DNA from: a virus
Virus record (IMG/VR): IMGVR_UViG_3300045988_164095
Coordinates: 1-19,044 of that record
Length of the DNA: 19,044 bases
Reading direction: 5' to 3' (one strand)
Below, one piece after another: positions 1 to 19,044 of this stretch; position 1 is the first letter of the stretch, and each line of letters starts with the position of its first letter. The notes beneath the pieces are model-generated. The model saw only the letters and a program-made list of their open reading frames with translations. It did no database searches and had not been told where the DNA came from. A program made the translations under genes and the position numbers.

Positions 1-1
1 T

Positions 2-868
2 TTTACTGCTGATTTAAGTGAATTAGCCCTTAATATAGATGGTGTACCTCTTTGTAGTATTATAGGTTCTGCTCAAACATATGCAGATGTAAAGTTAAAT
101 AGTGGAGATTTAAGTAGAAAAGGAGGGTTTTTTAAAACATCTCATTTTGATCTAAATAACCAGGAGATTACTAATCTTAATGAAGCATATGGAAGATGGT
201 CTAGTGAATCTCAATTTTTGGGTCAAACAATACATAGTGCTACTTTATCTAATGTTAAAATACCTACAACTACTAAAGAAGTAAGTGCAAATTATTTATT
301 TATTGGAGTAAAAATAGATAATAATGATTTCTCTGTAATGAATAATTTTCAAAATCTTGTATTAGTAGATCCAAAATGGGCATTTGCAGATACAGCTGAT
401 GGAGCTACTAATATAGATAATATAACGATTAATATTCCATTTAAAGGAGATTGTAATCATATGTTTCATAGAGCATTATATCTAACAACTATTCCAAGTA
501 ATTTTACCTTTACTGGAATTACAGATATAAGCTATATGTTTAGTACTTGTAGTAGATTAACAGCTACACCAGAAATAGATTGCCATCTTGTTACAGATTG
601 TACTAGTTTTGCTGCAAATTGTCCAGAATTAGTAACTGTAGGAGCTTTAAATGGATTAGGAGAGAGTTTAACTAAAGGAGGAGTTCTTTATTTTGCACAA
701 TCTCCAAATTTATCTACAGATTCATTACAAACTATAGCAGAATCTATTGGCACAGCAGTAAGTTCTAATACAAGTATATCATTCAAATCTACTGCATATG
801 ATAAATTAACAGATGAACAGAAATCATTAATCGCTTCAAAGAATTGGAGCATAAATCGAGTTGCATAA
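2..868 (+). CDS. Tail fibre / receptor-binding protein, C-terminal part (5' end lies outside the window), with BspA/DUF285-like leucine-rich repeats
   Basis: The frame is open from base 2, so the TTG at 218 in the ORF track is not the true start. Repeat units such as ISYMFSTCSRLTATPEID and CTSFAANCPELVTV resemble DUF285/BspA-type LRRs. The C-terminus LTDEQKSLIASKNWSI is paralogous to the end of CDS 1765..2736. TAA stop. Confidence 0.6.
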   Translation, partial: FTADLSELALNIDGVPLCSIIGSAQTYADVKLNSGDLSRKGGFFKTSHFDLNNQEITNLNEAYGRWSSESQFLGQTIHSATLSNVKIPTTTKEVSANYLFIGVKIDNNDFSVMNNFQNLVLVDPKWAFADTADGATNIDNITINIPFKGDCNHMFHRALYLTTIPSNFTFTGITDISYMFSTCSRLTATPEIDCHLVTDCTSFAANCPELVTVGALNGLGESLTKGGVLYFAQSPNLSTDSLQTIAESIGTAVSSNTSISFKSTAYDKLTDEQKSLIASKNWSINRVA

Positions 869-870
869 TT

Positions 871-1107
871 ATGAAAATTGAAATTAAAGAAAAATATAAA
901 GTAGTTAGTCCAGAAGAAGGTTATGTACTTACTAACTATAAAGAAGGAATGGATATTAAATTATACAGTTCATTTACTGAATGTATCTGTCCTTTAAGTT
1001 GCGATTTAGAGCATCTATCAGAAGTCTCTTTAGATAAGGATGCTGAATATAAAGAATTAGCTATTAAAGCTTCTAAAGAGTATGAGGAATCAATAAAAGT
1101 TAGATAA
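871..1107 (+). CDS. Hypothetical protein (78 aa)
   Basis: ATG at 871 lies 2 nt after the upstream TAA, and the ORF-track start at 844 is an alternative TTG. The gene is tightly packed between neighbours and ends in TAA. Confidence 0.55.
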   Translation: MKIEIKEKYKVVSPEEGYVLTNYKEGMDIKLYSSFTECICPLSCDLEHLSEVSLDKDAEYKELAIKASKEYEESIKVR

Positions 1108-1109
1108 TT

Positions 1110-1763
1110 ATGATTATACTTAAGAATACTAAAAATACACAAACTTTTTATGTAAGTAAGAAATGTGGTATTGAACCTGGACAACTTCCTGTTGGTTCTT
1201 ATACTAAGATTGAAGCAGATGAAAGATTTCAACCTAAAGGTAATTACATTTCTGAGGAGAAAGCAGAAGAGTTAATTGATACTAAAGTAACAGAAAGTAT
1301 TGAAGATCAAGTTCCTCCTTTAGTAGATCAATCTATAGATGCTAAACTTGTTCCAATTAATACTGAGATTACTAATCTTAAAGGGGAAGTTGAGGAGTTA
1401 GAAACTTCTAAGATGGAAGTATTCCAAGCTAATCAACCTCTATCTTTACATAGAAATGGAGAAGGTTTGCAACTATCTGTAGATTTAAGTAATTATGCAA
1501 CTAAAGCAGAAATTCCTGATACTAGTGATTTTGCTACTAAAGAAGAGCTTACAGCTGTAGAGAATAAGATTCCTGATGTATCTGGATTAGCTACGAAAGA
1601 TGAAGTTGCACTTAAAGCAGATAAAAGTGAGTTATCAAACTATGTAACTACAGATGCATATAATACAAAGATGACAGAGTTAGATGGAGAAATCTCAGCA
1701 ATTCAAGCTCAGATTGGTAATATTTCAACTACTCTTGATACAATTAATGGTGAGGTAATCTAA
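1110..1763 (+). CDS. Tail-fibre-like coiled-coil protein
   Basis: 217-aa ORF with ATG 2 nt after the upstream stop. It carries repeated ATK(A/E/D)E(I/L/V) units (SNYATKAEIPDTSDFATKEELTAVENKIPDVSGLATKDEVALKADKSEL) typical of fibre shafts and sits between two fibre genes. Confidence 0.55.
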   Translation: MIILKNTKNTQTFYVSKKCGIEPGQLPVGSYTKIEADERFQPKGNYISEEKAEELIDTKVTESIEDQVPPLVDQSIDAKLVPINTEITNLKGEVEELETSKMEVFQANQPLSLHRNGEGLQLSVDLSNYATKAEIPDTSDFATKEELTAVENKIPDVSGLATKDEVALKADKSELSNYVTTDAYNTKMTELDGEISAIQAQIGNISTTLDTINGEVI

Positions 1764-1764
1764 T

Positions 1765-2736
1765 ATGGCAAATACAATTTCTGATAAATTAACGTATCTT
1801 GAAGGTACTAAGAGTGCCATTAAAGATGCTATTGTAGCTAAAGGTGTTGCTGTATCAGATTCCGATACCTTTAGAAGCTATGCAGATAAGATAGGACAGA
1901 TTTCTGGAGGTGGTGGAGGAAAGATTAATTTAAATGATTATGGATTAACATTTGCATATTCTAGTATGACACAAGAGCAATATGATAATATAGAATATTC
2001 TCTTCCAGATAATATAAATCATTGATTTGATGGGGCTAATTTTATATCTACAATAGATATATCAAGTCATATTGATCTGTCTAAAGTATATGATGCTTCA
2101 TATGCCTTTCAAAACACATATAATATATATATTGATAATATAAGAACTAATGTTGGGGATAGTTACGCATTTTCTGGATTTCAAGGCACACTAAATAATT
2201 TAGAATTAATTAATACCTTATCCTCTAGTTGAAATTATGCAGTAAGGACATTCTTTAATGCTTCTACTTTACCAACTACTTTAAAAGTGATAAATGAAGC
2301 TGATACTGGTGTATCAGTTTTACAATTTTTCTTTTATTCTGTTAGCAGTAATGTTCCTGAAATTGAAGCTAGTAATGGACAACTGTCTTTATATAATTAC
2401 TTTAGTTCATATAATGAGACTGTTACAACAGTAGGAAAAATTAAATTAAATAATTGCATATTAACAGGAGATTTAAGTAAAACTGCAATATGTGCAGTTT
2501 CTAATAATATTGTTACTTATTTTGGAGGTGTTGAAGGGGCCGATAAAAGTATGAATTTAGCAAATTTTAGAGTACTAAATAGCCAATCAGTAACTGATAT
2601 TATTACAAATGTTAGTGATTTAACTGGAAAAGATACCAAAACTTTAACTTTTTATACGGATGTTTATAATGCACTTACTGAGGAACAGAAATCATTAGCT
2701 GCATCTAAAAACTGAACTTTAGCAAGTTCAAAATAA
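1765..2736 (+). CDS. Tail fibre / receptor-binding protein (323 aa, three in-frame TGA)
   Basis: ORF-track pieces 1765..2025 and 2287..2715 are in the same frame, and the stretch between them has no TAA or TAG. In-frame TGA codons are at 2023, 2230 and 2713, and the true stop is TAA at 2734. The N-terminus MANTISDKLTYLEGTKSAIKDAIVAKGVAVSDSDTFRSYADKIGQI is a widespread phage tail-fibre N-terminal motif. The C-terminus LTEEQKSLAASKN-TGA-TL is paralogous to 2..868. Confidence 0.7.
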
Positions 2737-2737
2737 T

Positions 2738-2787
2738 TGTCAGTTTTTATTTTTTCTTAGTACTTTGAGTGAGTAAAAAACTTGACA
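2738..2787 (+). repeat. Copy 1 of a 50-bp quasi-palindromic intergenic element (invariant 20-mer AGTGAGTAAAAAACTTGACA at 2768..2787)
   Basis: TGTCAGTTTTTATTTTTTCTTAGTACTTTGAGTGAGTAAAAAACTTGACA. It aligns without gaps to 10191..10240 and 16041..16090. The arms TGTCAGTTTTT and AAAAACTTGACA are inverted repeats. It starts 2 nt after the TAA of the upstream gene. Confidence 0.9.
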
Positions 2788-2813
2788 TTAAAGGAGGCTT
2801 AGGTCTCCTTTAA
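2788..2813 (+). terminator. Intrinsic-terminator-like hairpin
   Basis: The 9-bp stem TTAAAGGAG/CTCCTTTAA has an 8-nt loop and is followed by TTATTTTAAT. Confidence 0.6.
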
Positions 2814-2859
2814 TTATTTTAATACATTAGTAAATTGGTTTATATTTTAAGAAAAAGAT

Positions 2860-2888
2860 ATGTAAAAGTAATGTAAAACTATGTAAAA
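2860..2888 (+). repeat. Three direct repeats of ATGTAAAA directly upstream of the 2890 start codon
   Basis: ATGTAAAA occurs at 2860, 2871 and 2881 (spacing 11 and 10 nt), followed by the gene ATG at 2890. Confidence 0.8.
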
Positions 2889-2889
2889 T

Positions 2890-3282
2890 ATGAACTACAG
2901 TTTAATTCTTCAAAATACAACTACTAAAGAAGTTTATACATTTGATCTTGAAAATCAGAATTATTCTGAGAATATCTACTATAAGTTTGATATTACACTT
3001 CAAGAAGGAATGAGAGACGGTGAATATCAATATATTTTATTTGAAAATCCTAATAAGTATGATATAATCATTGATACTAATAATATTTATAGAAGTGAAT
3101 TGTATGGTAATCCTGTAATATTAGTTACATATTCCAATACTCTCACAAATGGAACAGAGATACTTGTAGCTGGTACTCCCATAAGCATACTAAGCTCAGG
3201 TTTAATGAGGGTAGGTAATTATGATAATAATAAATACCAATATGACTATCAATCAAAATACACAGCTTATGAAAGAAAATAA
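2890..3282 (+). CDS. Hypothetical protein (130 aa), probably virion-associated by position
   Basis: Intact ORF with ATG start and TAA stop, first gene after element copy 1 and directly upstream of the portal gene. Confidence 0.55.
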   Translation: MNYSLILQNTTTKEVYTFDLENQNYSENIYYKFDITLQEGMRDGEYQYILFENPNKYDIIIDTNNIYRSELYGNPVILVTYSNTLTNGTEILVAGTPISILSSGLMRVGNYDNNKYQYDYQSKYTAYERK

Positions 3283-3292
3283 AAGTAAAATA

Positions 3293-4360
3293 ATGATGTC
3301 AGCCATAGATCCTTTCATTCAATCTAACATCGTTCTTCCAACGGAAACAAAGAAAAGAGGTTCTGATATGATAATGTGAGGAGAAGATAATAAATATCCA
3401 TTATATCTATGGGATTTATATTTAAATGTTGCCACTCTCCAATCCATTATTAATGGTTCTGCTGACTTTATTGTTGGTAACGATGTTAAATGTAATGCTC
3501 CAGGATTTGAAGTAGTTGTAAACAAGAAAGGTGAAACAATAGTTGATATAATGAGAAAAATCACTATTGATAAGATGATATTCGGAGGTTATGCTATCCA
3601 AGTAATTAGAGATATGCTTGGAAGAGTTGCAGAGATCTATCATATTGATTTTATGAATGTAAGGTCAAGCGAAAAGAATGATATATTATATTATGCAACT
3701 GATTGGACAGCTTGGTCTGTAAAAGCTATAAAATATCCAAAATTTGGAGCTGGGGATGAAAATCCAGCTAGTATATTTTATAATAAAGGTTATATAACAA
3801 GAGGAGTATATCCTATTCCTGTTTATGGAGCTGCTATTTTATCTTGCGAAACTGAGAAAAATATTAATGAATTCCATTTAAATAACATCAATAATGGATT
3901 TATGGGTAATCTTATTATTAACTTTAATAATGGGGAACCTACAGATGAAATTAGAGAGGAGATTGAGAGGAATATTAATGAGAAGTTCTCTGGTTATCAG
4001 AATGCTGGCAGAATATTGATTTCATATAATGCAGATGAGGCAAATAAGACTACTATTGAAAGATTAGATTCTGATGATTTTGATGAGAAATATCAATCAT
4101 TATCTGAGAGAACCAGAGATCAAATATTCTGTGCCTTCAGAGCTAATCCTTCGTTGTTCGGTTTAAACTATAGCTCAGGATTTAATGAAAATGAGTTTAA
4201 TGAAGCATTTAAGCTATATAATCGTACTTTTGTACGCCCAATACAATCAGAAATTTGTGACTCATTTGATAAAATCTTCGGCATTAAGAATAGTATTACT
4301 ATTGAACCATTTAGTTTAACTCCAAAAGGAATGTCAGACAATGCAGAAAATGTTGAATAA
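3293..4360 (+). CDS. Portal protein (355 aa, one in-frame TGA at 3377)
   Basis: ATG at 3293 is in frame with ORF-track 3551..4360, and only a TGA (MIM-TGA-GEDNKYP) interrupts the frame. The length and sequence (YPLYLWDLY, SERTRDQIFCAFRANPSLFG) recall HK97/PBSX-type portals (Phage_portal family). Confidence 0.7.
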
Positions 4361-5003
4361 TTATACAGTGTACTGCCATAAGAATATAGCTGATAATAAA
4401 TTATATTTTGGAATAACATCACTTACTTTAAATAATAGATGGGGAACTAAAGGTCAAGGTTACAAGAATAATCTTTATTTTAGCAGAGCAATTAAAAAAT
4501 ATGGTTGAGATAATTTTGAGCATATTATAATTAGAGATAATCTTCCAGAAGCTTGTGCTAAGACTTTAGAAAAGATTCTGATTTATAAGTATAATACTAG
4601 AAATCCAAAATATGGGTATAATTTAACTGATGGAGGAGACGGTACTTGTGGATATTCTTTTTCACAAGATTATAAAGATAGTCTTAGAATTATAAGATCA
4701 GGAGAAAATAACTCATTTTATGGTAAACAGCATTCAGATGAAAGCAAGCGTAAAATGAGGGAGGCAAGATTAGGCAAAACTCCTTGAAATAAAGGTATGA
4801 AACTCTCAGATAAAGAAAAACAACTAATTTCAGAACGTCAGTGCAAAAAAGTATATAAGTATGATTTAGATGGTAATTTTATTTGTGAGTATAAATCAGC
4901 TAAGGAAGCTGGAGAGAAGAATAATGTAGATTCTTCTAGTATATCTAGATCTTGTAGAAAAAATAAACCCTGCAAAAATTATAAATATTATTATGGAATA
5001 TAG
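4350..5003 (+). CDS. GIY-YIG homing endonuclease (217 aa, in-frame TGA at 4506 and 4785)
   Basis: The N-terminus YTVYCHKN..NKLYFGIT is the GIY..YIG motif. It also has AIKKYG-TGA-DNFEH, YGYNLTDGGDG and a NUMOD-like GKTP-TGA-NKG, plus a C-terminal YDLDGNFICEYKSAKEA DNA-binding module. The gene overlaps the portal 3' end by 11 nt and the next gene's start by 11 nt. TAG stop. Confidence 0.85.
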
Positions 5004-5670
5004 AAATGTACTATTAATATCTGAAGATTATATAAAATCAGAATCTAATCTAGACAATAATGTTTCTGGTAAATATCTTCAGTCAGCAATTAAACTTGCA
5101 CAAGATATTGAGCTTCAGTCATTAATTGGAACTAAGCTCTTAGAAAAGATTCAGAAATTAGTAATTGATTGAAAAGATCCAAATAAACCAGTTCATCCAA
5201 TAGAACCTCCTATTTATGATCCTACTTCAATAGATGACCCAGAAAATCATAGATATAAAGAATTGCTAGATTACTATATTCAGCCTTATTTACTTTATCA
5301 AGTATTAAGTGAGATTACTATACCCATCTCATTTAAGCTGAGTAATTTTGGGGTTATGAGGACTGATGATGAGAAAGATTTAACTTCTGATATTAGCCAA
5401 GTTAATCTTATTAAGAAATATTATAGAGATAAAGCAGATTTCTTTAAAACAAGATTACAAAATTGGGTAATTACATATTATAATGATTTTCCTGAATTGT
5501 ATTCTTATAAACCTCTTAAAGATATGTATCCAAATATGTATTCAAGTTCATCTTGCACTATTTGGTTAGGTGGAGCTAGAGGTAAAGGTTGGAGATATAA
5601 TTCTTGTGAAGGTCCTCTGCAAAGAGCTTATGATTTCCCTTCAAGTGATAACAATAAAAAGAGTAAGTAA
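4993..5670 (+). CDS. Putative head-tail connector/adaptor-like structural protein (225 aa, in-frame TGA at 5170)
   Basis: ATG at 4993 is in frame with ORF-track 5263..5670. The N-terminus ISEDYIKSESNLDNNVSGKYLQSAIKLAQDIELQSLIG resembles gp6-like connector N-termini. The functional call is weak. Confidence 0.4.
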
Positions 5671-5671
5671 G

Positions 5672-6097
5672 ATGACGTATTTTGAATTAATAAACAATTT
5701 AAAAGCTTGTGCTCTTGAAGAACCCAATATTAATTTTGTAGGAAGTAAGGATATATATGAACTTAATAGTATCCCAACTATTGAATATAATGTATTTTAT
5801 ATAACTCCAAATACATTTAATATGGATGAGGATACTATTACTTACTCTTTAAATCTCTATTTTATAGCAAGATGGGATGAGACTGATAATAATCAGCTTG
5901 AAGAGCAATCAGCTGGAATATTAGCATTAACTAATATAATTAACCGATTTAATAACCAATATCCAGAAGTTGATATTTCTTATCCTTTAATTTTTACTCC
6001 ATTTTATCAGAAGTTCAAAGATATTTGTACTGGAGTATTTGTTAGAGTTGATTTAGCTGTAGACAACACTCTGGGTACTTGTTCTGATAATATGTAA
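5672..6097 (+). CDS. Hypothetical structural-module protein (141 aa)
   Basis: ATG at 5672 lies 2 nt after the upstream TAA, and the ORF-track start at 5570 is an upstream alternative start inside the previous gene. TAA stop overlaps the next ATG as TAATG. Confidence 0.55.
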   Translation: MTYFELINNLKACALEEPNINFVGSKDIYELNSIPTIEYNVFYITPNTFNMDEDTITYSLNLYFIARWDETDNNQLEEQSAGILALTNIINRFNNQYPEVDISYPLIFTPFYQKFKDICTGVFVRVDLAVDNTLGTCSDNM

Positions 6098-6750
6098 TGG
6101 AAAATAAATTAAACTGGTTTGGAAAGGTATTAGAATGAGTAGATAAATATGGACTGTGGAAAATAATTAAAGGTGGATTTGGATTTATATTTATTTCTTA
6201 TGTAATAATTATAAGTACTAATCCAGGAATAATATATGATAAAGTTGTAAGTTATATAGAAACAGTTCATAATACTAATCAAGTAATACGACAAGAAGCA
6301 GATCTTAAGGTTAGATATATTCTTAAAGATCTTTTAAATGATACGAATGCAGATAGAGCTTGAGTTATTGAGTATCATAATGGCACTTCAGGATTAGGAG
6401 GACTTCCATTCACTTATGGAATTATGAATAGTGAAGAAACAGAACCTGGAGTTGCTCCAGTTTCAAGTCATTATAAAGACTTCCTATTATCTGATTATTT
6501 ATTTATATTAGAAACATCTAAAAAAGGAGGATGATTTGGAGATGTTGAAGATATAAAGGAATTAGATAGAAGAATGTACTATACATTTAAATCTAATGAT
6601 GTTAATAAGATTGCAATATTCTATTTAAAGTCAGAAGATAGAGATATTGGAGTTTTAGGATTATCTTATTGTGATAATGAGATGCCAGTTGATACTTGAG
6701 TAAAACTAAGAGATGCAGGAATTAAAGTAAGTATAATTTTAAATAAATAA
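6097..6750 (+). CDS. Membrane-anchored protein (217 aa, four in-frame TGA), first gene of the putative lysis cassette
   Basis: This gene is absent from the ORF track because of TGA codons at 6136, 6361, 6532 and 6697. Read with TGA=Trp it is one continuous frame from a TAATG start to TAA at 6748. It has an N-terminal hydrophobic helix GGFGFIFISYVIIISTNPGII. Confidence 0.6.
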
Positions 6751-6753
6751 GTT

Positions 6754-6915
6754 ATGAAATATTGGATGAAATATTTAATAGCAATAGTAATTATAATCTT
6801 AGTCTTTTTAATGGTAAAAGTAATTCCATTTTGGATTACATTAGTACTCATAGCACTTGGTGCAGGATGTCATTTATTTTACCGTTATACTATGCTTAAA
6901 GATATTATTAAATAA
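6754..6915 (+). CDS. Holin candidate (53 aa, two predicted transmembrane helices)
   Basis: MKYWMKYLIAIVIIILVFLMVKVIPFWITLVLIALGAGCHLFYRYTMLKDIIK has two hydrophobic helices and a charged C-terminus. Its stop overlaps the endolysin ATG as TAATG. It is too short to appear in the ORF track. Confidence 0.5.
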   Translation: MKYWMKYLIAIVIIILVFLMVKVIPFWITLVLIALGAGCHLFYRYTMLKDIIK

Positions 6916-7367
6916 TGAAATATTTTACTATTAGTGAATTAACAAGATCTGATACAGCTTCTATTAAGAAGATAGATAATACTCCAAATAAAGAGATTAC
7001 TGAACACCTTATAGAGTTAGTCGAGAAACTTTTAGACCCAATCAGAGAGAGATGGGCAAAGTATTGTGATGACAATCAGCTTGGTAACGCAGGCATCAGG
7101 ATTTCCTCTGGTTTTAGAAATAAGGAGCTTAATAAAGCAGTAGGAGGATCTTCAACTTCTGCTCATTTAACAGGGTATGCAGCAGATATATCTCCAATTA
7201 ATGGTAATATGAAAGTATTCCAAAGTTGGATTGCTGAAGCTATTGAAGAATTTGATTTCGACCAGTTGATATATGAAAGGCCTAGGAATGGTATAGCAAG
7301 TTGAATACACTTGGGATTAAAGAATAAAGACGGGATGCAAAGACGACAGAAATTTACTATTATATAA
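6915..7367 (+). CDS. Peptidase M15 (VanY/M15A-like) peptidoglycan hydrolase, endolysin (150 aa, in-frame TGA at 7302)
   Basis: The motif SGFRNKELNKAVGGSSTSAHLTGYAADI matches the SxHxxGxAxD signature. The terminal His is recovered only by reading through TGA (GIAS-TGA-IHLGLK). TAA stop overlaps the next ATG. Confidence 0.8.
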
Positions 7368-7960
7368 TGTTTTACTATTGTTATAAAATAATTTTAACTG
7401 CAGGTACATTAAGAGGCAAGTATTATATTGGGAAAAGGATTTATAGAGGTAAAGACATAAATAAAGATCCATATAAAGGATCAGGAAGGATTATTACTAA
7501 TTATTACAAAAGATTCCCTAATGCATACCAAAAGATTATTTTGGCAACTTGCACTAATGCAGATGAATTATCTAAATTAGAATACAAACTAATTGGAGAT
7601 AAATGAGACACTGATCCTATGTGTTTAAATTTGAAACCTGGAGGAGAAGGAGGCAATTACGGAGTCAAATTTAATTCTGAATGAAAGAAGAAACTGTCTA
7701 ATTCTAATAAGGGAAAGAAACATAATTGCCCAGAATCTTGAAGAGTTAAAGTAGATGCTCATAACAAACAAAGATGTCGTAAAGTAGCTCAGTATGATTT
7801 AGATGGTAATTTTATTCAAGAGTATGAAAGTTGCACTGAAGCAGCCAAATCTGTAGGAACTGATAGAGGAGCTATTAGTAGAGTATGTGGTGGATTAGCA
7901 AATACAGCTAAAGGATTCAAGTGAAGATATGTTAATAAAAAAGAAAAGGAGGGCAAATAA
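7367..7960 (+). CDS. GIY-YIG homing endonuclease (197 aa, in-frame TGA at 7604, 7682, 7739 and 7922)
   Basis: N-terminal YCYKI...GKYYIGKR motif, then NLKPGGEGG and a C-terminal YDLDGNFIQEYESCTEAA...GFK-TGA-RYV module shared with 4350..5003. TAA stop lies inside a terminator hairpin. Confidence 0.8.
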
Positions 7961-7970
7961 CCCTCCTTTT
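7944..7970. terminator. Bidirectional intrinsic terminator between convergent gene blocks
   Basis: The 10-bp stem AAAAGGAGGG/CCCTCCTTTT has a 7-nt loop, with an A-tract upstream and a T-tract downstream. It sits between the plus-strand gene ending at 7960 and the minus-strand gene ending at 7974. Confidence 0.8.
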
Positions 7971-7973
7971 TGT

Positions 7974-8114
7974 TTATTCCATTATCTCAAATAATTTCTC
8001 ATCTTTAGGTATTAATTCTCCAGTTTGTAAATCTACTAAGAATTTACTATTTTCGGGAATTACATAAACGTAATTTACTCCATTTAAGCATAATTTATAT
8101 GTAAAGTACTTCAT
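7974..8114 (-). CDS. Hypothetical small protein (46 aa)
   Basis: MKYFTYKLCLNGVNYVYVIPENSKFLVDLQTGELIPKDEKLFEIME. Its ATG lies 2 nt from the stop of the upstream micro-ORF, and its TAA sits just before the terminator. It is below the ORF-track length cutoff. Confidence 0.4.
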   Translation of the reverse strand: MKYFTYKLCLNGVNYVYVIPENSKFLVDLQTGELIPKDEKLFEIME

Positions 8115-8115
8115 A

Positions 8116-8256
8116 TTAGTCAATATATGTTGCGTTAGGAATCTCTGGTTTGGGTGTTTCTTTTACTTCTTCCCAAACTAAACCTCTATTCTGGTTTTCT
8201 AGTTGAACTATTCTATATTCTAGTTCTTCAAGCTTTTTAAATAAATAATCATCCAT
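8116..8256 (-). CDS. Hypothetical small coiled-coil protein (46 aa)
   Basis: MDDYLFKKLEELEYRIVQLENQNRGLVWEEVKETPKPEIPNATYID, packed tightly with its neighbours. Confidence 0.4.
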   Translation of the reverse strand: MDDYLFKKLEELEYRIVQLENQNRGLVWEEVKETPKPEIPNATYID

Positions 8257-8258
8257 AA

Positions 8259-8420: not shown

Positions 8421-8438
8421 ATCACAAATATAATATTT

Positions 8439-10275: not shown

Positions 10276-10289
10276 TAGAAGTAATAGAA

Positions 10290-10567: not shown

Positions 10568-10598
10568 CAAATATAATAATAAATTTTTATTCTACAAA
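10568..10598 (-). promoter_or_regulatory. Second, tandem Bacteroides-type promoter (-33 TTTG, 19-nt spacer, -7 TATATTTG)
   Basis: The minus strand reads TTTG tagaataaaaatttattat TATATTTG tagtgt. Its -33 box lies inside the last codons of CDS 10587..11072. Confidence 0.5.
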
Positions 10599-11072
10599 AC
10601 TTTTCTTGATTTTTCTTACCCAAAGTTTTGTTAATTTTTTGCCATTCTCTTTTTCGTATCTTTGATTAGCATATTTTATTCAGTCTCAATTTAGTGCATT
10701 TAATTGAATTGCAGCTCTATTTAATGATACTCCAGATAAGCACAATTCTACTAATTTATCTATATTCTCATTATATCATTCTTTTTTGCTTTGTTTATTT
10801 ATTTTTATATTATTTGCACTCTTAAAATCTGCTAATAGCTCTACAATTAATTCATCTGGAAGTTTTAACCATTCTGAATTACTCTTAGTTTTATATGCTC
10901 TATATTTATCTCTATAATAATTTTCATCATCTCTATTTCCTTCTTTTGCTATAAAAAATTCTATCATCTCATTTGGAATAGTATTTTTATAAGCAGTTAG
11001 TCTGCCACTTATATTAGTAGTGTAACCAACTTTAATAAAATTCGTTTTAGTTAATTTAATTACGTAAATCAT
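10587..11072 (-). CDS. T5orf172 (GIY-YIG-like, MUG113) domain protein with C-terminal helix-turn-helix (161 aa, three in-frame TGA)
   Basis: The N-terminus IYVIKLTKTNFIKVGYTTNISGRLTAYK...SEWLKLP matches the T5orf172 pattern. The ORF-track stop at 10776..10778 is TGA. Read-through adds IDKLVELCLSGVSLNRAAIQLNALN-TGA-D-TGA-IKYANQRY... (HTH-like) up to TAA at 10587. Confidence 0.7.
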
Positions 11073-11148
11073 ATTGTTTTTATTAATATATAATAAAAAT
11101 ACAAATAGTAATATTTTTTTGAAAATAATAAAAATAATACCTAAAAAA

Positions 11149-11180
11149 TTTGGAAATTGAATAAAAATGTATTATCTTTG
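11149..11180 (+). promoter_or_regulatory. Bacteroides-type promoter (-33 TTTG, 20-nt spacer, -7 TATCTTTG)
   Basis: TTTG gaaattgaataaaaatgtat TATCTTTG tagtac lies in the divergent intergenic region, 45 nt upstream of the ATG at 11225. Confidence 0.6.
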
Positions 11181-11224
11181 TAGTACAATAATAAACAAGT
11201 ATTAACATATTAAATAATAAAATT

Positions 11225-11464
11225 ATGAAAAAAATAAATAAAATTTTAGTTGGTCTTTTAATTGCATCTTCAATTGTTGCAGGTTTTAGAGTAAATGAAG
11301 TCTATCAGGAAAGACAACATAAAACATTTGAATTAAGATTAGAAAGAGCAGAATTAAAACATAAATTAGATTCAGTAATGTGGGTTAATCCAGCAAGTGA
11401 AGAAGTATCTAATTTATATGAAGAATATTGTGATTTAACACTTAAAATTAATAATATAAAATAA
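11225..11464 (+). CDS. Small membrane-anchored protein (79 aa)
   Basis: It has an N-terminal hydrophobic segment ILVGLLIASSIVAGF, and its TAA overlaps the next ATG as TAATG. Confidence 0.55.
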   Translation: MKKINKILVGLLIASSIVAGFRVNEVYQERQHKTFELRLERAELKHKLDSVMWVNPASEEVSNLYEEYCDLTLKINNIK

Positions 11465-11901
11465 TGAAAACAGATATAAGAAGCTTAGTCTTTACAAAGA
11501 ATCTATTTAAAGAGAAATTTAATATAGATATAGAATGATGTAAAGACGATTACTCCAGATATGATGGAACATTTAATTGGAATGGAATTGATTATATAAT
11601 TGAAGTTAAAAGGAGAAGATTTAATTCTAATAAATATCCAACCACTATTATTAATAGGGATAAATTTGATATGCTATCAAGAAATAATTCTATATTAGTA
11701 ATAATATTTGATGATGGAGTATATATATTTAAAGATATAAAACAAGCCTTTATAAAGGATTCTATGAAATATGGTTGTTCTACAACAGATTTTGGAGGAA
11801 CTTATGGCTATTCATTAAAAACAGAGTTGTCTTTAAAGAAAGCCATTAAGATAGATGTAAATACAGAATTTAGTAATTATATAGCAAATGATAGCCTATA
11901 A
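11464..11901 (+). CDS. Putative PD-(D/E)XK-fold nuclease (145 aa, in-frame TGA at 11536)
   Basis: ATG at 11464 is in frame with ORF-track 11671..11901. The segment YDGTF...IDYIIEVKRR fits a D...(D/E)xK nuclease core. The functional call is tentative. Confidence 0.4.
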
Positions 11902-12382
11902 AAGAATACTTAATTTTGAAAACTACCAAATTGGAACTGATGGCTCAATATGAAGTTTAAGAGCATCAGTTCCAAAGAGGTTAAAACCTCAAGTAAAAAC
12001 TAATGGGTACTTTACAGTAACATTATATAATAAAAATTTGAAAAAGAAGTGTTATATACATAGATTAGTAGCTGAAACTTTTATATCTAATCCGAATAAC
12101 TATCCTTGTATAAATCATAAGGATGAAAATAAATCAAATAATAATGTAAGTAATTTAGAATGGTGTACTTATAATTATAATAATAATTATGGAACTCATA
12201 ATCTGCGAGCTGGATATAGTCATAAGAAACCAATACTGCAATTACTAAATGGAATAGTTATTAAAAGATGGGATTCAACAATAGATGCTGAGAGAGAACT
12301 AAATATACAATCTAGAAATATTGTAAAGGTTCTTAAAGGGCAGCGAAAAACAGCAGGAGGATATATGTGAACATATGAGTAA
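11888..12382 (+). CDS. HNH homing endonuclease with NUMOD4-like N-terminus (164 aa, in-frame TGA at 11951 and 12368)
   Basis: It has FENYQIGTDGSI-TGA-S (NUMOD4-like), HRLVAETFISNPNNYPCINHKDENKSNNNVSNLEW (HNH_3-like) and a C-terminal KGQRKTAGGYM-TGA-TYE. The true stop is TAA at 12380. Confidence 0.8.
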
Positions 12383-12683
12383 TAACGAAATTGTAGAAAA
12401 GTACTATCCATTTATTATGGAACTTAAGCAAAAATTTGGTGCAGATGATGACTGTGTTCAAATGATTTTTGTAGAAATACTAGAGTATTCAAATCCAAAA
12501 TTAAATCAGCTTGATAGCAAAAATGAATTGAAATTTTGGATTACAAGATTATTTAAGAATTATTGGTTTAGTAAAACAAGTAGATATTACTATACCTATA
12601 AGAAATATTATGAGATTGTTAAAGAACCACTTGAACAACAAAATGACGAATTGGAGGATTGATTAAATGAAACGGAAGATTAA
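12375..12683 (+). CDS. Sigma-70-family region-2-like protein (102 aa, in-frame TGA at 12660)
   Basis: ADDDCVQMIFVEILEY and FWITRLFKNYWFSKTSR resemble sigma regions 2.1 to 2.4 of ECF-type factors. No region 4 is present in this frame. Confidence 0.5.
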
Positions 12684-12912
12684 TATTGACGATTTACTTA
12701 CTGAGTATGAAATAGACTATAGTATGTTTACAAATATGGATGATAGACTATTAAGTATATATCCAAAATGACTTGAGCTTAATAAGGCAGATAAGACAGT
12801 AATCATATTATATGCTGAATATCACAGTTATAGAGAAGTGGGAAGAATATTAGGAATTAGTCATACTACAATTCAAAGATTTATTAAACAAATAAGAGAG
12901 AGATTATGTTAG
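12667..12912 (+). CDS. Sigma-70-family region-4-like HTH protein (81 aa, in-frame TGA at 12769)
   Basis: DKTVIILYAEYHSYREVGRILGISHTTIQRFIKQIRERL matches a region 4.2 helix-turn-helix. The gene starts inside the last 17 nt of the region-2 ORF in the +1 frame. TAG stop. Confidence 0.55.
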
Positions 12913-13235
12913 AATTATTTATAATAGCAGTAATAATAGTCTTTATAATTGATTTATCTGGGGCTTTGGATAGTTTTAAACATAGTATTTGAAAAAGACT
13001 ATTTAAAGGTATGCCTTATAAAGGAGATTGAAGACTAAAACCTTTAGATTGCAGTTTATGTATGACTTGGTGAATTGGATTAATATATATTCTTATTACA
13101 AGTCAATTTTCAATTTTAATGGTTGGATATATTGCACTATTAGCATTTATGACTCCAATTATTAAAGATATTATGATATTATTAAAAGATGCATCTACTA
13201 AGCTGATAGATGTTATATACAAACTTATTGATTAA
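12906..13235 (+). CDS. Membrane protein (109 aa, three in-frame TGA)
   Basis: This gene is absent from the ORF track. Hydrophobic segments are LELFIIAVIIVFII, WIGLIYILITSQFSILMVGYIALLAF. It contains LDCSLCMT-TGG-TGA-IG, with adjacent TGG and TGA codons. TAA at 13233. Confidence 0.55.
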
Positions 13236-13324
13236 AAATTATATTTTATGGAAACAGAAGTTATTTATCACTACAAGAATGGAAAGTTAATTTCTATATT
13301 TACTTATACTAAAAAGCGCTAATT

Positions 13325-13660
13325 ATGAAACAATTAACAGAAGAGCAGTTTAAATATTTAAGAGGATTTGAAGATAGATTTGTAACGGCAACTAAGTCTA
13401 ATTATTGCAGAAATGTACAAAAGCAGGATGTAATTAAGCTTAAAGAGATTTATGAATGTTTAATTGAACAAGAATATAGAATGAGCGTAGCTTGTGCTAC
13501 TTGTATACTTAATCTTATAAAGAGGATTGCCCCAATCTATTTTGAATATCAAGAAAAACTAAAGGAAAATGAAAGTAAAGAATCAGGAACTGCCGAAGAA
13601 AATAGGGAGACCGAAAAAGGAAGAAGTAAAAGAGGATCAAATAGACGAACAAAAAACTAA
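13325..13660 (+). CDS. Hypothetical protein (111 aa)
   Basis: Intact ORF whose last 92 nt overlap the next gene in another frame, so the 3' extent is uncertain. Confidence 0.45.
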   Translation: MKQLTEEQFKYLRGFEDRFVTATKSNYCRNVQKQDVIKLKEIYECLIEQEYRMSVACATCILNLIKRIAPIYFEYQEKLKENESKESGTAEENRETEKGRSKRGSNRRTKN

Positions 13661-14021
13661 ATATCTTTATGCAGCAAGATTATTTAATAAAGGGTGGTCC
13701 AGAAATAAAGTAAGTGAGGAACTTCAAACTAAATATGGAGTTGGGCAAACTACTGCTGCTAAATATATTAGAGAAGCTTATAAGATTATTGCAGATAAAA
13801 ACGATAATCTTATAAAGAATTTAAGACATATACAATTAACAAGATTGGAAACATTGTTGGATATTGCTATTAGTAAAAATGATGTAAGATCTGCTACTGA
13901 GGTTATTAAAACAATAAATTCTATGTTTGGATTAAATCAACCAGAAATTCAAGTTAATATTCAAAATAATGAATGCCAATTTAAATTTGGAGATCCTATT
14001 ATAAATGACAAGGATATATAA
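13569..14021 (+). CDS. Putative terminase small subunit (150 aa)
   Basis: It has an N-terminal basic segment KKIGRPKK, then an HTH-like GWSRNKVSEELQTKYGVGQTTAAKYIREA. It lies directly upstream of and overlaps the large terminase gene. Confidence 0.5.
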   Translation: MKVKNQELPKKIGRPKKEEVKEDQIDEQKTKYLYAARLFNKGWSRNKVSEELQTKYGVGQTTAAKYIREAYKIIADKNDNLIKNLRHIQLTRLETLLDIAISKNDVRSATEVIKTINSMFGLNQPEIQVNIQNNECQFKFGDPIINDKDI

Positions 14022-15252
14022 AGGATATAGGCCATTTATGTACCAATATAAGGTTCATATAGCTATGGCAGATGCTTATAGATCTGGAAGGATATTTACA
14101 ATTAAAGCTAAACGACAAGTAGGTAAATCTTTCTTAGCTGAAAATGAATTATTACGATTTGCAATTAACTATCCAAAAACAGTCAATTGTATAGTAGAAC
14201 CTACTCTTGGACAATCAAGAAAAGTGTTTAAAGAAATAGTTAATGCTATAGCTGAAGCAGATATTCTTAAACGTAAGAATGAAACTTTGCTTGAATTAGA
14301 GTTTAATAATGGCAGTTCTATATTATTTAGATCTGGAGAACAAATGGATTCGTTACGAGGATTCTCTGTAAGTGGATTACTTGTATTAGATGAGGCTGCT
14401 TACTTAAAAGATGAAGTATTTGAAATTATTAAACCTACTACTGATGTGTGGTCTGCTCCAATATTAATTATTAGTACTCCAAGGTTCCGAGAGGGTTTCT
14501 TTTATGACTGCTTTACTAAAGGGTTAGATCCGAAATATGACAAGTTCTATAAATCATTTGATTGAGCTTTAGAAGATACATCTATGCTTTTAGATAAAGA
14601 GAAGTTAGAGATGTATCGACTTACAACCTCAAAAAATAAATTTAGAACCGAATATTTAGGGGAATTTGCAGATGATGATGGATGTTTATTTAATAATATA
14701 GCTAATTGCATAATTGAGAAAAAACCAGATTATCAGAGTCTTTATATAGGAATAGACTGGGCTACTGGAAGTGGTAAAGACTATACTTGTGTTACTGCTT
14801 TAAATGAATCTGGGCAAATGGTCTTTATAAAGTATTTTAACGATAAAACTCCAACAGAGCAAGTTGATTTATTAACAAATATACTAACTGAGTATCAAGG
14901 ATTTATAAAGATTGTGCAAGTTGAACAAAACTCAATTGGTAGTGTCTTCTATGATATGTTAATTCGGAAGAATCCGAAAATCAGGATTATACGATTCTTA
15001 ACTACTAATAAGAGTAAGGCAGATATAGTTAATAAGCTTCAAGCTGCTTTGGAGAATGAAAAGATAGGATTATTAAAAGATGATAAACTTTTAAATGAGT
15101 TAAGACTATATGAAGCTTCATATAATCCAAAAACTGGAAATGTTAGTTATAATGCTCCATCTGGATTTAATGATGATACAGTAATTTCATTAATGCTAGC
15201 CTATGACTCATTAAATACAAACAAAGGACATTATAATATTAAAATTAAATAG
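14005..15252 (+). CDS. terL: Terminase large subunit (415 aa, in-frame TGA at 14563)
   Basis: ORF-track pieces 14005..14565 and 14584..15252 share one frame. Walker A is AKRQVGKS and Walker B is LLVLDEAAY. Nuclease-domain acidic motifs are YIGIDWA and GFNDDTVISL. The TGA falls in KSFD-TGA-ALED. TAG stop. Confidence 0.85.
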
Positions 15253-15253: not shown

Positions 15254-15895
15254 ATGATAAAATCTTGGAATGAAATGAATTTAGCTCATTATAGAAAACT
15301 ATTGGATGTAATTAGAAAAGAATGAGAAAATGAATTAGATATGAATTTAGCTATGGTATCTGTACTTAGTGATATTTCTTTAGAAGAAATTCAAAATATG
15401 GAGCTGAATAAATTACAAGAATTAATTAACAATCTTAAATTCGTAGAGAGTACATATAAACCTAAAACTCCAGAAACTAAATATATTATTGGAGACAGGG
15501 AATATAAAGTCTTTTTTAATGTTAATAAGATGACTGCAAGTCAATACATAGACTTCCAGAATTTTTATAAGAAGTATGATGATTATATGCCAAATCTAGC
15601 TGCTTGCTTTTTATTACCAGAAGGTAAGAAGTATGGAGAAGATTATGATCCTTTGGATGAAGCAGAGTTTTTGAGTAATCTTCTAACCATTGATGTATTT
15701 TCAGATATAATGTTTTTTTTTGTAAACTTATTGCGACTATCAACTCTGAGTACCCTTCACTCTTCGGAAAGAGAGATGAAGAAGAAATTGAAGAAAACAA
15801 AGAACAAATTAGAAAGGAGAAAGATCCTAAAGAGCTTAATTCAGGCGAGGAGATTAATACTTTTACTCAAAAATGAAGCTGAATTATCTGAATAG
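15254..15895 (+). CDS. Hypothetical protein, zero-frame product (213 aa, in-frame TGA at 15323)
   Basis: ATG at 15254 is in frame with ORF-track 15341..15895. A T9 run lies at 15713..15721. The zero-frame tail after the run is low-complexity and K/R-rich, ending at TAG 15893. Confidence 0.5.
15713..15721 (+). other. T9 homopolymer: candidate -1 ribosomal frameshift or transcriptional slippage site
   Basis: Zero-frame codons are atg ttt ttt ttt gta. A -1 shift enters the frame that stays open to 16038. Confidence 0.45.
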
Positions 15896-16038
15896 ATAAA
15901 GTAAGTGAGGTTACTAAATTTAATTGGCATCAAGTTTATGATATGCAAATTAAAGAGTTCTTAAATACAATTTGTTATGTTATAGATAAAGCTAATGAAG
16001 AAAATAGACAAATTGAAGAATGAAAACGAAAACATTAA
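15721..16038 (+). CDS. -1 frame extension of gene 15254 (105 codons, four in-frame TGA), with no start codon of its own
   Basis: This frame is open from 15679 to TAA at 16036, and its first ATG is not until 15943. Its translation is CKLIATINSEYPSLFGKRDEEEIEENKEQIRKEKDPKELNSGEEINTFTQKWSWIIWIDKVSEVTKFNWHQVYDMQIKEFLNTICYVIDKANEENRQIEEWKRKH. It ends 3 nt before element copy 3, mirroring the stop-to-element spacing at copy 1. Confidence 0.45.
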
Positions 16039-16040
16039 AA

Positions 16041-16090
16041 TGTCAGTTTTTATTTATTTTAACTACTAAAAGTGAGTAAAAAACTTGACA
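16041..16090 (+). repeat. Copy 3 of the 50-bp element (invariant 20-mer at 16071..16090)
   Basis: TGTCAGTTTTTATTTATTTTAACTACTAAAAGTGAGTAAAAAACTTGACA. Confidence 0.9.
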
Positions 16091-16093
16091 CTT

Positions 16094-16118
16094 AAATAGG
16101 GAGTAAATCTCCCTATTT
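16094..16118 (+). terminator. Intrinsic-terminator-like hairpin
   Basis: The 10-bp stem AAATAGGGAG/CTCCCTATTT has a 5-nt loop and is followed by GTGTTT. Confidence 0.6.
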
Positions 16119-16160
16119 GTGTTTAGATACCAACCTATAAATTAATATATTTTAACAAAA

Positions 16161-16649
16161 ATGAATATTCAAGAACTAAATTTTCCAAATTTAAATGAGT
16201 TATTAAGACGTTGAGGAGAACTCATAATTTCTTTATATAGACAGGAATTGGTTCAAACAAGGACTGATGATACTGGATCATTAGGTAATAGTTTAAATTA
16301 CATTGTTGAGACCCAAAATGGGGATTATGAAGTTAATGTTAGTTTATTAGATTATTGGAAATACGTTGAAGAAGGCAGACATTCTGGTAAGTTCCCTCCA
16401 CTTAATGATATAAAGAGTTGGATTAAAACTAAGCCAATTATTCCCAGACCTTATAATGGTAAGTTACCAACAATAGATCAGCTTACATATTTAATTGGAA
16501 GAAAGATACATCTTCAAGGAATTCAAGGTAAACATCCATTATCAAATACTATAGAATATATAGAAAATAACTATATGGAGCTTCTTGATGATGCTATAAC
16601 TAAAGATCTTCAAGGACAAGTAGATTATTATTTATTTAAAAACTTTTAA
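16161..16649 (+). CDS. HK97 gp10-like head-tail joining / tail-completion protein (162 aa, in-frame TGA at 16212)
   Basis: ATG at 16161 is in frame with ORF-track 16248..16649. YWKYVEEGRHSGKFPP resembles the (Y/F)VE(F/E)G core of the HK97-gp10 family. The functional call is moderate. Confidence 0.5.
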
Positions 16650-16651
16650 AA

Positions 16652-18832
16652 ATGGCATTTATACCAAGTAAATTAGGAATATATAATGCATCAAGGAGTT
16701 TTCCTGTTAAATGGAATAATCCTGGGTGGGGAATTACTGGAGAATATGATTATTGGACTTGGGGAGATGATTATACTGAAGAAGGGCCTTTAGAGGTAAC
16801 TATACAAGAGCCTAGTACTTCTGGATGTACAATACAATTTTTATCTCCCACAACAATAACTACTGATTCTTCTACTGTATTTCATTTTTATCCTAGAGGT
16901 CTTACTACTGCTTTATTAATGGAAGATTTACCAATTAATTTACATAGTAAATCTCCTGGATTCTATCCTGCTAATGGTAGTATTAATGTACCAAATACTG
17001 GTGGAGAATATACAGTAGAGTATATATTAAATAGATCAGATATTATTAAATGAGATGCAGCAGTTGTTAATGCTACAGCTTTAGTTAATATAGAAGTTCT
17101 GGATTGGGATTCTTGCTCTATTAAGTTTAAATTTACAGTAAGAGCTAATACTCAATGGAATACAGATTTAATTGGAACTATTCAATTAGGAGCTTATTAT
17201 GACACTAATAAGTTTATTAGTTATAGTTACGGCTTTAAAATTGAAAAAAGTAATACTCCAGAAGATTTAAAGTTAGTAGTAACTCCTTCATCTGGAACTT
17301 ATGGAGCATCTGCTTTTGTTACTGAAGAATTCCATTTAAGTACAACTAAAGCAGAAGAAACAATTACCTCATTTAATGTTACCTGCCCTCAAGCTAGTAA
17401 TATTAAAAAGGATATTGTTGATAACTATTTTGTATTAACTGTTCCAGAGAATAAAACTACTAATAATTTGGAGTTTAGTGCAATGGTTACTGCAACAACT
17501 TCTGGGGGTTATAACCTTGAAGCTACAGTTCCAATTAAACAAGCTGCAACATCTTTAATGATTCCTAATACTAATTATGAAGTAAGTTGAACTGCATCTA
17601 CATTAAATATAATTGGTACAGGCTCAAATAACTTAGATGATGTTGTATTTAGTATTCCTGTAGGTTGGATTAGTGGACAGAAGATAACTGTGAATCCTCA
17701 AGGTGTAGCAACTATTAGTTTGAACATTGCAGAAAATTCAGGTTTATCTTCTAGACAAGCAACTATTGGAGTATCTGTTATAAAGAATAGTTCAAGTATT
17801 ATTAATTTATCTATTAATATTACACAATCTGTTAAATCTGATATATTTCCTATTTGAAAAGATTATGTTTGGGAAGAGATTATTAGTTCAGATTTTATTG
17901 AATATCATTTAGATTATGCAGGGGATATGGTCTATGCTGGAAAAGCTTATAAATATCCTGAAACAGATAGAGTAGAGTTTTTATTAAATAATGTAGCTGA
18001 AAATTATCTATCTAATGGAATTATATTTAATACATCAAAAACAATAGTATCACCAGAATATTTAAAACCATTTACATTAATAACTTCATCTGGAAATGAA
18101 AAGCCAATTACTTTTTTCAATGATTGGAGTTATAAAGACAGAGATCTAACTAAAGGCACTATGTTAAGTGATCCTATTACTGGTTTAGTTGATCCAAGGC
18201 AGTATTTAGTATCAAGTTGAATTCTACCAACTGGAACTGGAGTTATTAATAGATTCTTTTATATAGATGGAGTACAATCTGCTATGGATATTAGTTTAAA
18301 TTCTGGAATTAATGGATATACATATACAGAAGATTTAAGTAATAAATTATGGCCTTGTGGAAGTTATTTAATAGTAGGATTTGTAGAAGGTGGAAACATT
18401 AGTGATAGACAGATTAGATATGATATAGATACTACAGGTAAAGATTATGTGTTATATTATACTAATTCAGCAGGTGGATGAGATTCATTACTTGTTGAGG
18501 GTAATGTTAAAAAGAATGATGATATTAAATCTGAAACATATACTCGTAAGGTATTAAATACATCACAAGAGTTTGCAAGAAATAAGTATTTGAATACTAT
18601 AACTTCAAGCTGGATTCTTTATACTGGTTATTTAAATGATATTCAAGCTTCTAAGATGTTTAATCTAATTGAGAGTACCAAAGTATATTTGCATAATCTT
18701 AAAGATAATACTATCACTCCAGTATTGATTACAGATACAAATTGTGAATATAAAACTTATACTAATCAAGGTAAAAACAAGTTCTATTATACAATTAATG
18801 TAGAAGCTTCTCAAGATACTTATCGTAAATAA
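16652..18832 (+). CDS. Large virion structural protein (726 aa, five in-frame TGA) with BACON/Ig-like repeats, probably tail or baseplate
   Basis: ORF-track pieces 16652, 17927, 18284 and 18590 are all in one frame. I translated 17054..17926 codon by codon and found no TAA or TAG. In-frame TGA codons are at 17051, 17588, 17855, 18218 and 18479. The segment S-TGA-TASTLNIIGTG...VGWISGQKITVNPQGVATISLNIAENSGLSSRQATIGVSV fits a BACON-like pattern. Confidence 0.65.
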
Positions 18833-18834
18833 TT

Positions 18835-19044
18835 ATGAGAAAGAATATTAAACTATTTATTGCAAATAAAGAGGTTGACTGTAGTGAGGGAATTAGTCTT
18901 CCTATGACATATACTGTTGAGGATTTCCAAAACCCCACTATAGTCAAGAACTCGTTTAGTAAAACGATTTCTATACCTGGCACAAAGAATAATAATAAGA
19001 TTTTTGGAGAGATTTATAAGTTAGATAGATTTCTCCATATAAAA
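18835..19044 (+). CDS. Virion structural protein, N-terminal part (3' end lies outside the window)
   Basis: ATG lies 2 nt after the upstream TAA, and the frame is open to the window end (MRKNIKLFIANKEVDCSEGISLPMTYTVEDFQNPTIVKNSFSKTISIPGTKNNNKIFG...). Confidence 0.5.
   Translation, partial: MRKNIKLFIANKEVDCSEGISLPMTYTVEDFQNPTIVKNSFSKTISIPGTKNNNKIFGEIYKLDRFLHIK

Follow-up and report, generated by a model that had tools for sequence, protein, structure and literature searches.

The stretch of DNA analysed here, hereafter the window (IMG/VR record IMGVR_UViG_3300045988_164095, positions 1 to 19,044), is 19,044 nt long with 28% GC, and when TAA and TAG are taken as the only stops its genes are tightly packed and lie mostly on the + strand. 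It covers some two thirds of the genome of a tailed phage, roughly 30.5 kb in all, which is free and widespread in human faecal metagenomes. We regard it as nearly certain that most genes of this phage use TGA as a codon for tryptophan, and that TAA and TAG alone terminate. Evidence on the meaning of the codon was drawn from the window and from about 90 related contigs, which were gathered by scans with the large terminase (TerL) and the portal protein plus exact-protein lookup.

In-frame TGA codons and gene content

Gene models were obtained by a stop-to-stop scan with TAA and TAG as the sole stops. The original prediction, which had been made from the letters of the window, put the number of in-frame TGA codons at 36, spread over 18 genes, and the scan returned the same number: 35 in 17 open reading frames (ORFs) of at least 60 aa, and one in a 53-aa ORF at 8259..8420 (-). 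Inclusion of the -1 frame at 15721..16038 adds four (15874, 15880, 15889, and 16021) and brings the total to the 40 also predicted. The table-11 fragments named at that time were recovered (1765+2287, 3551, 14005+14584, and 16652+17927+18284+18590), as were all of the quoted motifs, including the paired TGG (845) and TGA (2713) of two paralogous fibre C-termini. Three genes that had been said to appear only with read-through of TGA (6097..6750, 12667..12912, and 12906..13235) are indeed without any table-11 ORF of at least 60 aa. TGA never serves as a terminator, again as predicted: the 26 complete gene models end in TAA (22) or TAG (four, at 5001, 12910, 15250, and 15893).

When genes were re-called, as the original prediction had proposed, the fraction of the window lying in ORFs of 100 aa or more rose from 0.67 under table 11 to 0.90 with TGA as a sense codon, and it was only 0.72 in a control in which TAG was made sense; these ORF statistics suit code 25 as well as code 4. 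Pfam matches extend over TGA codons in TerL (Terminase_6N, 37-231, over codon 187), in the GIY-YIG gene (GIY-YIG, 8-86, over codon 56), and in the HNH gene (NUMOD4, 5-47, over codon 22). Counting TGA lifts the tryptophan content from 0.79% (TGG alone) to 1.40%. No read-through context was found at +4, the base after TGA being distributed as the base after TGG.

The TGA-containing genes include those for the virion and for DNA packaging. A tail-fibre-like protein of 323 aa (1765..2736, +; TGA at 2023, 2230, and 2713) shares a paralogous C-terminus (repeat D3) with the product of a partial gene at the start of the window (2..868; TGG at 845). The portal protein (3293..4360, +; Pfam Phage_portal) has a TGA at 3377, at which relatives have TGG (three) or TGA (two), and a DUF6712 protein is encoded at 4993..5670 (+; TGA at 5170). 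Farther to the right are TerL (14005..15252, +), with a TGA at 14563 inside the Pfam Terminase_6N match, a protein of 162 aa (16161..16649, +; TGA at 16212), and a structural protein of 726 aa (16652..18832, +) with five TGA codons (17051, 17588, 17855, 18218, and 18479). A membrane-anchored protein of 217 aa (6097..6750, +; TGA at 6136, 6361, 6532, and 6697), unseen under table 11, precedes a holin-like protein of 53 aa (6754..6915, +) that has two hydrophobic stretches and is encoded with two TGG and no TGA. The holin-like gene lies directly 5' of a Peptidase_M15_3 gene (6915..7367, +; Pfam; TGA at 7302), the presumed endolysin.

On the - strand, a superfamily 2 (SF2; DExH) helicase of 573 aa (8439..10160) is encoded with five TGG and no TGA; the 53-aa ORF at 8259..8420 lies 3' of it (TGA at 8355), and a 51-aa ORF (10290..10445, -) lies 5' of it, between early promoters and a terminator. 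This 51-aa ORF is present in the window and in one relative (L085), and about 35 nt stand in its place in most relatives. A rightward operon includes, as its second gene, a small gene at 11464..11901 (+; TGA at 11536). It is the first of a block of five small genes (11464..13235) that also holds the HNH endonuclease gene described below, a further small gene (12375..12683, +; TGA at 12660), a gene resembling helix-turn-helix/sigma-70 region 4 proteins (12667..12912, +; TGA at 12769), and a gene for a membrane protein (12906..13235, +; TGA at 12990, 13029, and 13071).

Four genes resemble homing endonucleases and together occupy about 12% of the window: a GIY-YIG/NUMOD3 gene (4341..5003, +; Pfam; TGA at 4506 and 4785), a NUMOD1 gene (7367..7960, +; TGA at 7604, 7682, 7739, and 7922), a T5orf172/MUG113-domain gene (10587..11072, -; TGA at 10776, 10686, and 10680), and an HNH endonuclease gene (11888..12382, +; TGA at 11951 and 12368). 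They have the top TGA shares, from 0.60 to 0.77. The phage population is mosaic, homing-endonuclease genes being gained and lost among relatives: some of the four are variably present (the T5orf172 gene, for example, is found in some relatives only), and extra HNH genes occur in other relatives.

The gene at 15254..15895 (+; TGA at 15323) carries a run of nine T at 15712..15720 that is perfectly kept in 31 unique relatives despite differing flanks. The -1 frame beyond it (15721..16038) is open and conserved at the protein level, and TGA and TGG are exchanged in it among relatives. From these sequence features, the locus looks like one of programmed -1 frameshifting at a slippery run, by which a long form of the gene product extending to 16038 would be made.

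A 63-nt direct repeat (TGTCA...AAAAAACTTGACA) occupies three intergenic positions (2735..2797, 10188..10250, and 16038..16100) and folds into a long AU-rich hairpin; after each copy comes a GC-richer hairpin, the sequence of which differs from copy to copy, and in two of the three a U-rich run comes next (z-scores of -3 to -5). What looks like a similar sequence, with AAAAACTTGAC in it, stands after the gene for an 893-aa protein in a relative (L028). The 63-nt repeat is probably a terminator or a late regulatory element, and it does not resemble a tRNA. Repeat D1 was considered as a tRNA and rejected, its fold being an AU-rich hairpin plus a terminator-like hairpin with no tRNA shape.

The size of the genome was judged from an exact lookup of the helicase protein, which gave 53 assembly-collection blocks; the longest carrying contig was 20-50 kb in 40 of these and longer in none. 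The ten places shown are contigs of 29-33 kb from many samples, none of them within a host contig, and the helicase is therefore carried on a free phage genome of about 30.5 kb. Most of the IMG/VR relatives come from IMG sample 3300045988, a co-assembly of human faecal samples. Megablast of the window against phage records gave no match, and comparison with PHROGs gave matches to families of unknown function only. Public pipelines differ in their treatment of contigs of this lineage, some calling them in code 4 and others splitting the genes.

One relative lies inside a contig of 148,631 nt (L028/L071; IMGVR_UViG_3300045988_175865). The 10 kb 5' of its portal gene encode large collagen-like tail-fibre proteins in code 4, and an exact-pattern walk outward from this stretch gained 349 extra bases. 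The contig was considered as a host contig with a prophage, but the 10 kb before the portal gene consist entirely of code-4 fibre genes and hold no host junction; it may be a chimera or concatemer, or else the genome of a larger phage.

Identity of the amino acid inserted at TGA

At the TGA positions of the window, the related contigs have TGA 446 times, TGG 177 times, TAT 25 times, and GGN once, and at the TGG positions of the window they have TGG 803 times and TGA 144 times. The other replacements at TGA positions are chiefly Tyr or Phe codons, with Gly nearly absent. Since TGA and TGG are swapped freely, with Tyr and Phe next, the two are synonymous tryptophan codons, and the glycine reading of code 25 is excluded. 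Homologues from standard-code relatives (L034, L035, L036, L078, and L079) have at the TGA columns W five times, F and Y three times each, L twice, and H, R, and G once each; in two of these relatives (L034 and L035), Trp stands at TGA columns of both TerL and the 726-aa protein. Thus, the central claim of the original prediction, that TGA means tryptophan throughout the phage, is supported both by codon exchange within the lineage and by Trp in standard-code homologues.

The accompanying claim, that TGA falls on conserved Trp positions of the families concerned, stands for two of the examples and was overstated for others. In the M15 peptidase, the S-TGA-IHL codon lies in a column at which Trp is nearly invariant in standard-code homologues, and GIY-YIG codon 56 (motif KYGWDNF) corresponds to Trp in 144 of 150 representative homologues. 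GKTP-TGA-NKG (GIY-YIG codon 149), by contrast, has Trp in only nine of 147 distant homologues and so marks no conserved Trp column, and the two TGA positions of the HNH gene correspond to Tyr and Phe in the aligned I-HmuI, aromatic residues but no conserved Trp. The motif GFK-TGA-RYV, which had been placed in the HNH gene, belongs to the NUMOD1 gene (7367..7960). In databases, many copies of the M15 peptidase are truncated to 127 or 129 aa, and an aligned one of 129 aa (P0140) stops exactly at the TGA, where table-11 gene calling would cut it. In a PDB sequence search with the M15 peptidase, the alignment stopped short of the TGA column.

Decoding of TGA and the nature of the host

No tRNA was found by ARAGORN in the window or in 83 loci of the TGA lineage that jointly span the whole genome. 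An Rfam scan of the window at the gathering threshold gave no match, and permissive Rfam scans gave no tRNA at E values up to 5 in the window and up to 1 in two relatives (L001 and L043); the method works, because the tRNA of a TAG-recoded relative (L097, described below) scored 54 bits in the same run as a positive control. Likewise, no release factor and no tRNA synthetase was found by Pfam among 20 of the approximately 30 window proteins or in precomputed Pfam annotations of whole related contigs. The 426-nt gap 5' of the helicase, which corresponds to the tRNA site of that relative, was considered as the place of a cryptic tRNA and rejected, since it holds two promoters, the 51-aa ORF, a terminator, and a repeat hairpin instead; the 51-aa ORF is missing from most relatives and therefore cannot be a general decoding factor.

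The helicase gene is almost free of TGA. The AlphaFold model of its product (predicted local distance difference test score of 82) matches SF2 helicases in Foldseek, including the origin-binding protein of herpes simplex virus 1, and on this structural resemblance the helicase is probably a replication protein. Over 32 unique alleles, its tryptophan codons are TGG 149 times and TGA once, and none of its five columns has a TGA share of at least 0.1, against 46 of 71 columns in other genes (Fisher p = 0.008, permutation p = 1e-4). Among all tryptophan codons, TGA accounts for 0.43 within the window and for 0.36 across the population, whereas the A-share of the other NNR codon pairs is 0.70 to 0.99; TGA is therefore kept well below the mutational expectation. 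By analogy, the avoidance of TGA by the helicase resembles that of recoded stops in genes expressed under host rules (Borges et al., bioRxiv 10.1101/2021.08.26.457843).

Several features point indirectly to the host, on which the original prediction was silent and which we judge fairly likely to be a cell-walled, standard-code member of Bacteroidota. The Bacteroides promoter consensus is TTTG-N17-23-TAnnTTTG, and the window has four matches to it against 1.24 expected, all of them at operon starts and in the correct orientation. Two face the helicase operon (10487..10518 and 10568..10598, -), a third lies at 8425..8456 (-), and the fourth precedes the rightward operon from 11225 (11149..11180, +). 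The promoters are kept in every relative examined (7/7, 17/17, and 17/17 unique relatives). Together they mark out an early region of divergent transcription at about 10160..11225. No enrichment of Shine-Dalgarno motifs was seen 5' of the genes, as is typical of Bacteroidota, and the holin-like ORF adjoining the M15 peptidase indicates a host with peptidoglycan. The nearest cellular homologues of the peptidase (52% identity) are found in Bacteroidales-type contigs, where they adjoin genes for Mfa-type fimbrillins, HU-HIG proteins, and contractile injection systems.

The helicase family leads to the same phylum: it is found in elements with Arm-DNA-bind_5 (Bacteroidota-type) integrases and BACON-domain neighbours, and also in a TAG-recoded prophage integrated at tRNA-Thr. 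This prophage, on 132-kb contigs (L090/L099) of a Bacteroidetes metagenome-assembled genome (MAG), has a TerL with 13 in-frame TAG codons and an intact helicase homologue. A scan of GTDB genomes with a helicase alignment furthermore found a TGA-to-Trp prophage (L100; OY764215.1) in the 4.37-Mb chromosome of a Bacteroidaceae MAG, with TGA at Trp positions of its TerL, portal, capsid, and helicase, including the invariant W168 of the helicase. The prophage (1..14500) is of low GC (24-36%), lies beside tRNA-His, and encodes a serine recombinase; the host CapA-like gene adjoining it ends in TGA followed by TAA.

On balance, we lean towards an alternatively coded phage of the type described by Borges et al. 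that infects a standard-code Bacteroidota host, as opposed to a phage that mirrors a table-4 host. The SF2 helicase would then stay almost free of TGA as it must be made under host rules, and the TGA-containing genes would rely on an efficient UGA-to-Trp decoding activity. Because there is no phage tRNA, the candidates for this activity are a phage protein that disables release factor 2 (RF2), so that the host tRNA-Trp would read UGA, and a suppressor that comes from the host or from another element. It is a tentative proposal at best that, in a standard-code Bacteroidota cell infected by a 30-kb phage free of tRNA, release-factor, and synthetase genes, UGA comes to be read as Trp through the action of a phage protein, such as an RF2 inhibitor that would let the host tRNA-Trp(CCA) decode UGA.

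A number of observations weigh against a recoded phage in a standard-code Bacteroidota host. TGA is not confined to late genes, since 18 of the approximately 30 genes contain it and these lie on both strands. Among them are the 53-aa ORF that comes right after the 8425..8456 promoter, in which all 20 of 20 unique relatives have TGA, and gene 11464..11901, the second of the rightward operon. The holin is without TGA, contrary to the lysis-gene bias reported by Borges et al., and the helicase homologue of the TGA-recoded Bacteroidaceae prophage itself has three TGA, so a rule by which an early gene is kept in the standard code is not general. The absence of any tRNA counts against it too, since it leaves the recoding with no evident means of decoding. 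The number of promoter matches is only modestly above chance (four were reached in seven of 200 shuffles), and it is by position and conservation, not by count, that the promoter evidence carries weight. There is neither a CRISPR spacer match nor an integrated copy of the lineage to identify the host directly; a TerL search of GTDB genomes likewise found no relative and hence no integrated copy that would name a host.

Among the alternatives, two concern the codon itself and are effectively refuted. If TGA really terminated translation, one would have to take the split ORFs for pseudogenes, for errors of assembly, or for rare read-through products, and table-11 callers do give such fragment models for relatives (L080, L083, and L086). 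The same in-frame TGA codons are, however, kept in dozens of independently assembled genomes of about 30 kb from different samples, with the flanking codons conserved at the protein level; the essential genes for TerL, the portal, and the 726-aa structural protein would all be broken, and the last of these, with its five TGA, is unattainable through five successive low-efficiency read-throughs. Glycine at TGA (code 25), as in Absconditabacteria, Gracilibacteria, and their phages, would suit the low GC and the gut or oral habitat and fits the ORF statistics as well as code 4 does, but TGA and TGG are exchanged 177 and 144 times in the two directions and GGN appears only twice, and the TGA columns of standard-code homologues have Trp, the other replacements being mainly aromatic.

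The third alternative, which we consider possible but doubtful, is that the host itself uses code 4, whether a member of Mycoplasmatales or an unrecognised cell-walled gut bacterium, and that its tRNA-Trp(UCA) decodes TGA in a phage that mirrors it. This would account for a genome of about 30.5 kb without a tRNA, with no release-factor or Trp-tRNA-synthetase domain in the proteins scanned, and for TGA that occurs in most genes and on both strands (even directly behind the presumed early promoters), never as a stop, and in the same +4 context as TGG. The 28% GC is close to the mean of Mycoplasmatales (27%), and new code-4 gut lineages are still turning up (Parks et al., bioRxiv 10.64898/2025.12.01.691617). 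The novelty may instead be a human gut bacterium, cell-walled and so far unrecognised, that uses code 4. On the other hand, the conserved holin-like gene and M15 peptidase imply peptidoglycan and so argue against wall-less Mollicutes, the promoters are of the Bacteroidota type with no Shine-Dalgarno signal, and Bacteroidota are not among the known code-4 phyla (Parks et al., bioRxiv 10.64898/2025.12.01.691617). Also against a code-4 host are a TGA share (0.36 to 0.43) far under the A-bias of the other codon pairs, the near-total avoidance of TGA by the helicase, and the codes of the relatives, which either recode TAG and encode a tRNA(CUA) for it or keep to the standard code.

Comparison with known recoded phages

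Annotation with table 11 breaks this abundant gut phage into fragments, of which the many endolysin truncations of 127 and 129 aa in public databases are an example, and code 4 is the right setting for pipelines that meet the lineage. Gut phages that recode stop codons are well known, and the reading of TGA as tryptophan thus adds a member and no principle. A small, abundant lineage free of tRNA genes and with signs of a standard-code Bacteroidota host is nevertheless a compact system for the question of how most recoded phages without a suppressor tRNA get their recoded codons translated, and, of all its features, only the absence of a tRNA from a genome of this size has the potential to open new ground. 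If the phage-protein proposal were true, it would amount to a tRNA-independent switch of the genetic code, for which no more than some 15 uncharacterised genes would be candidates.

The phages of Mycoplasma and Spiroplasma infect hosts that natively use code 4 and are without peptidoglycan, and they read TGA as tryptophan without a phage tRNA. The window phage shares this reading and the low GC; unlike them, it has a holin-like gene, an M15 peptidase, and Bacteroidota-type promoters, and its TGA usage is far from mutational equilibrium. CrAss-like phages usually carry suppressor tRNAs. They are described as having opal or amber reassignment in genome blocks, with the standard code elsewhere (Mgcod, bioRxiv 10.1101/2022.06.29.495998), and the recoded crAssphages have predicted Bacteroidetes hosts and genomes of about 105 kb (Borges et al., bioRxiv 10.1101/2021.08.26.457843). 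CrAss-like genomes are of about 100 kb, against about 30.5 kb here, and the likeness considered is one of recoding.

Closer to the window phage are relatives that differ in code. One with a portal 62% identical (L077) is TGA-recoded too, while three with a TerL 32-43% identical (L034, L035, and L036) use the standard code. The rumen contig JAEEVN010000017.1 (L097) shares the portal, DUF6712 protein, M15 peptidase, helicase (52% identity), and TerL with the window (26-52% identity), in a similar core arrangement, with 29% GC and TAnnTTTG-type promoters. In contrast to the window, it is recoded at TAG and not at TGA, and where the window has no tRNA it encodes a tRNA(CUA), just 5' of the helicase and behind a TAnnTTTG promoter. 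This tRNA (7259..7346) is 88 nt long with the anticodon CUA; the contig is binned in a rumen MAG labelled 'Bacillales bacterium', and is probably a phage contig wrongly binned. The Bacteroidaceae prophage OY764215.1 resembles the window phage in having TGA at Trp positions and no suppressor tRNA in the approximately 14 kb seen of it, but it is integrated, with a serine recombinase, an HK97-type structural module, and TGA in the helicase, and the helicase is its sole homologue of a window protein. The TAG-recoded prophage at tRNA-Thr (L090/L099) resembles the Garnet prophage of Borges et al.

It is with the alternatively coded gut phages surveyed by Borges et al. (bioRxiv 10.1101/2021.08.26.457843) that the window phage compares most fully. 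Like them, it has low GC, occurs in the gut, reads TGA as tryptophan, and has a predicted standard-code host; its relatives are TAG-recoded, TGA-recoded, or standard-code, and its helicase gene, probably one for replication, almost avoids the recoded stop. Unlike them, its lineage yielded no tRNA even when the whole genome was searched with sensitive covariance models, TGA occurs in most of its genes with no restriction to a late block, and the holin is not recoded. A suppressor tRNA does not strictly define the class, however, because a TGA suppressor tRNA was detectable in only 35% of the code-4 genomes of that survey (Borges et al., bioRxiv 10.1101/2021.08.26.457843). Of the clades in that survey, those with small genomes, namely Garnet, Amethyst, and Topaz (22-34 kb), come nearest to the window phage in size.

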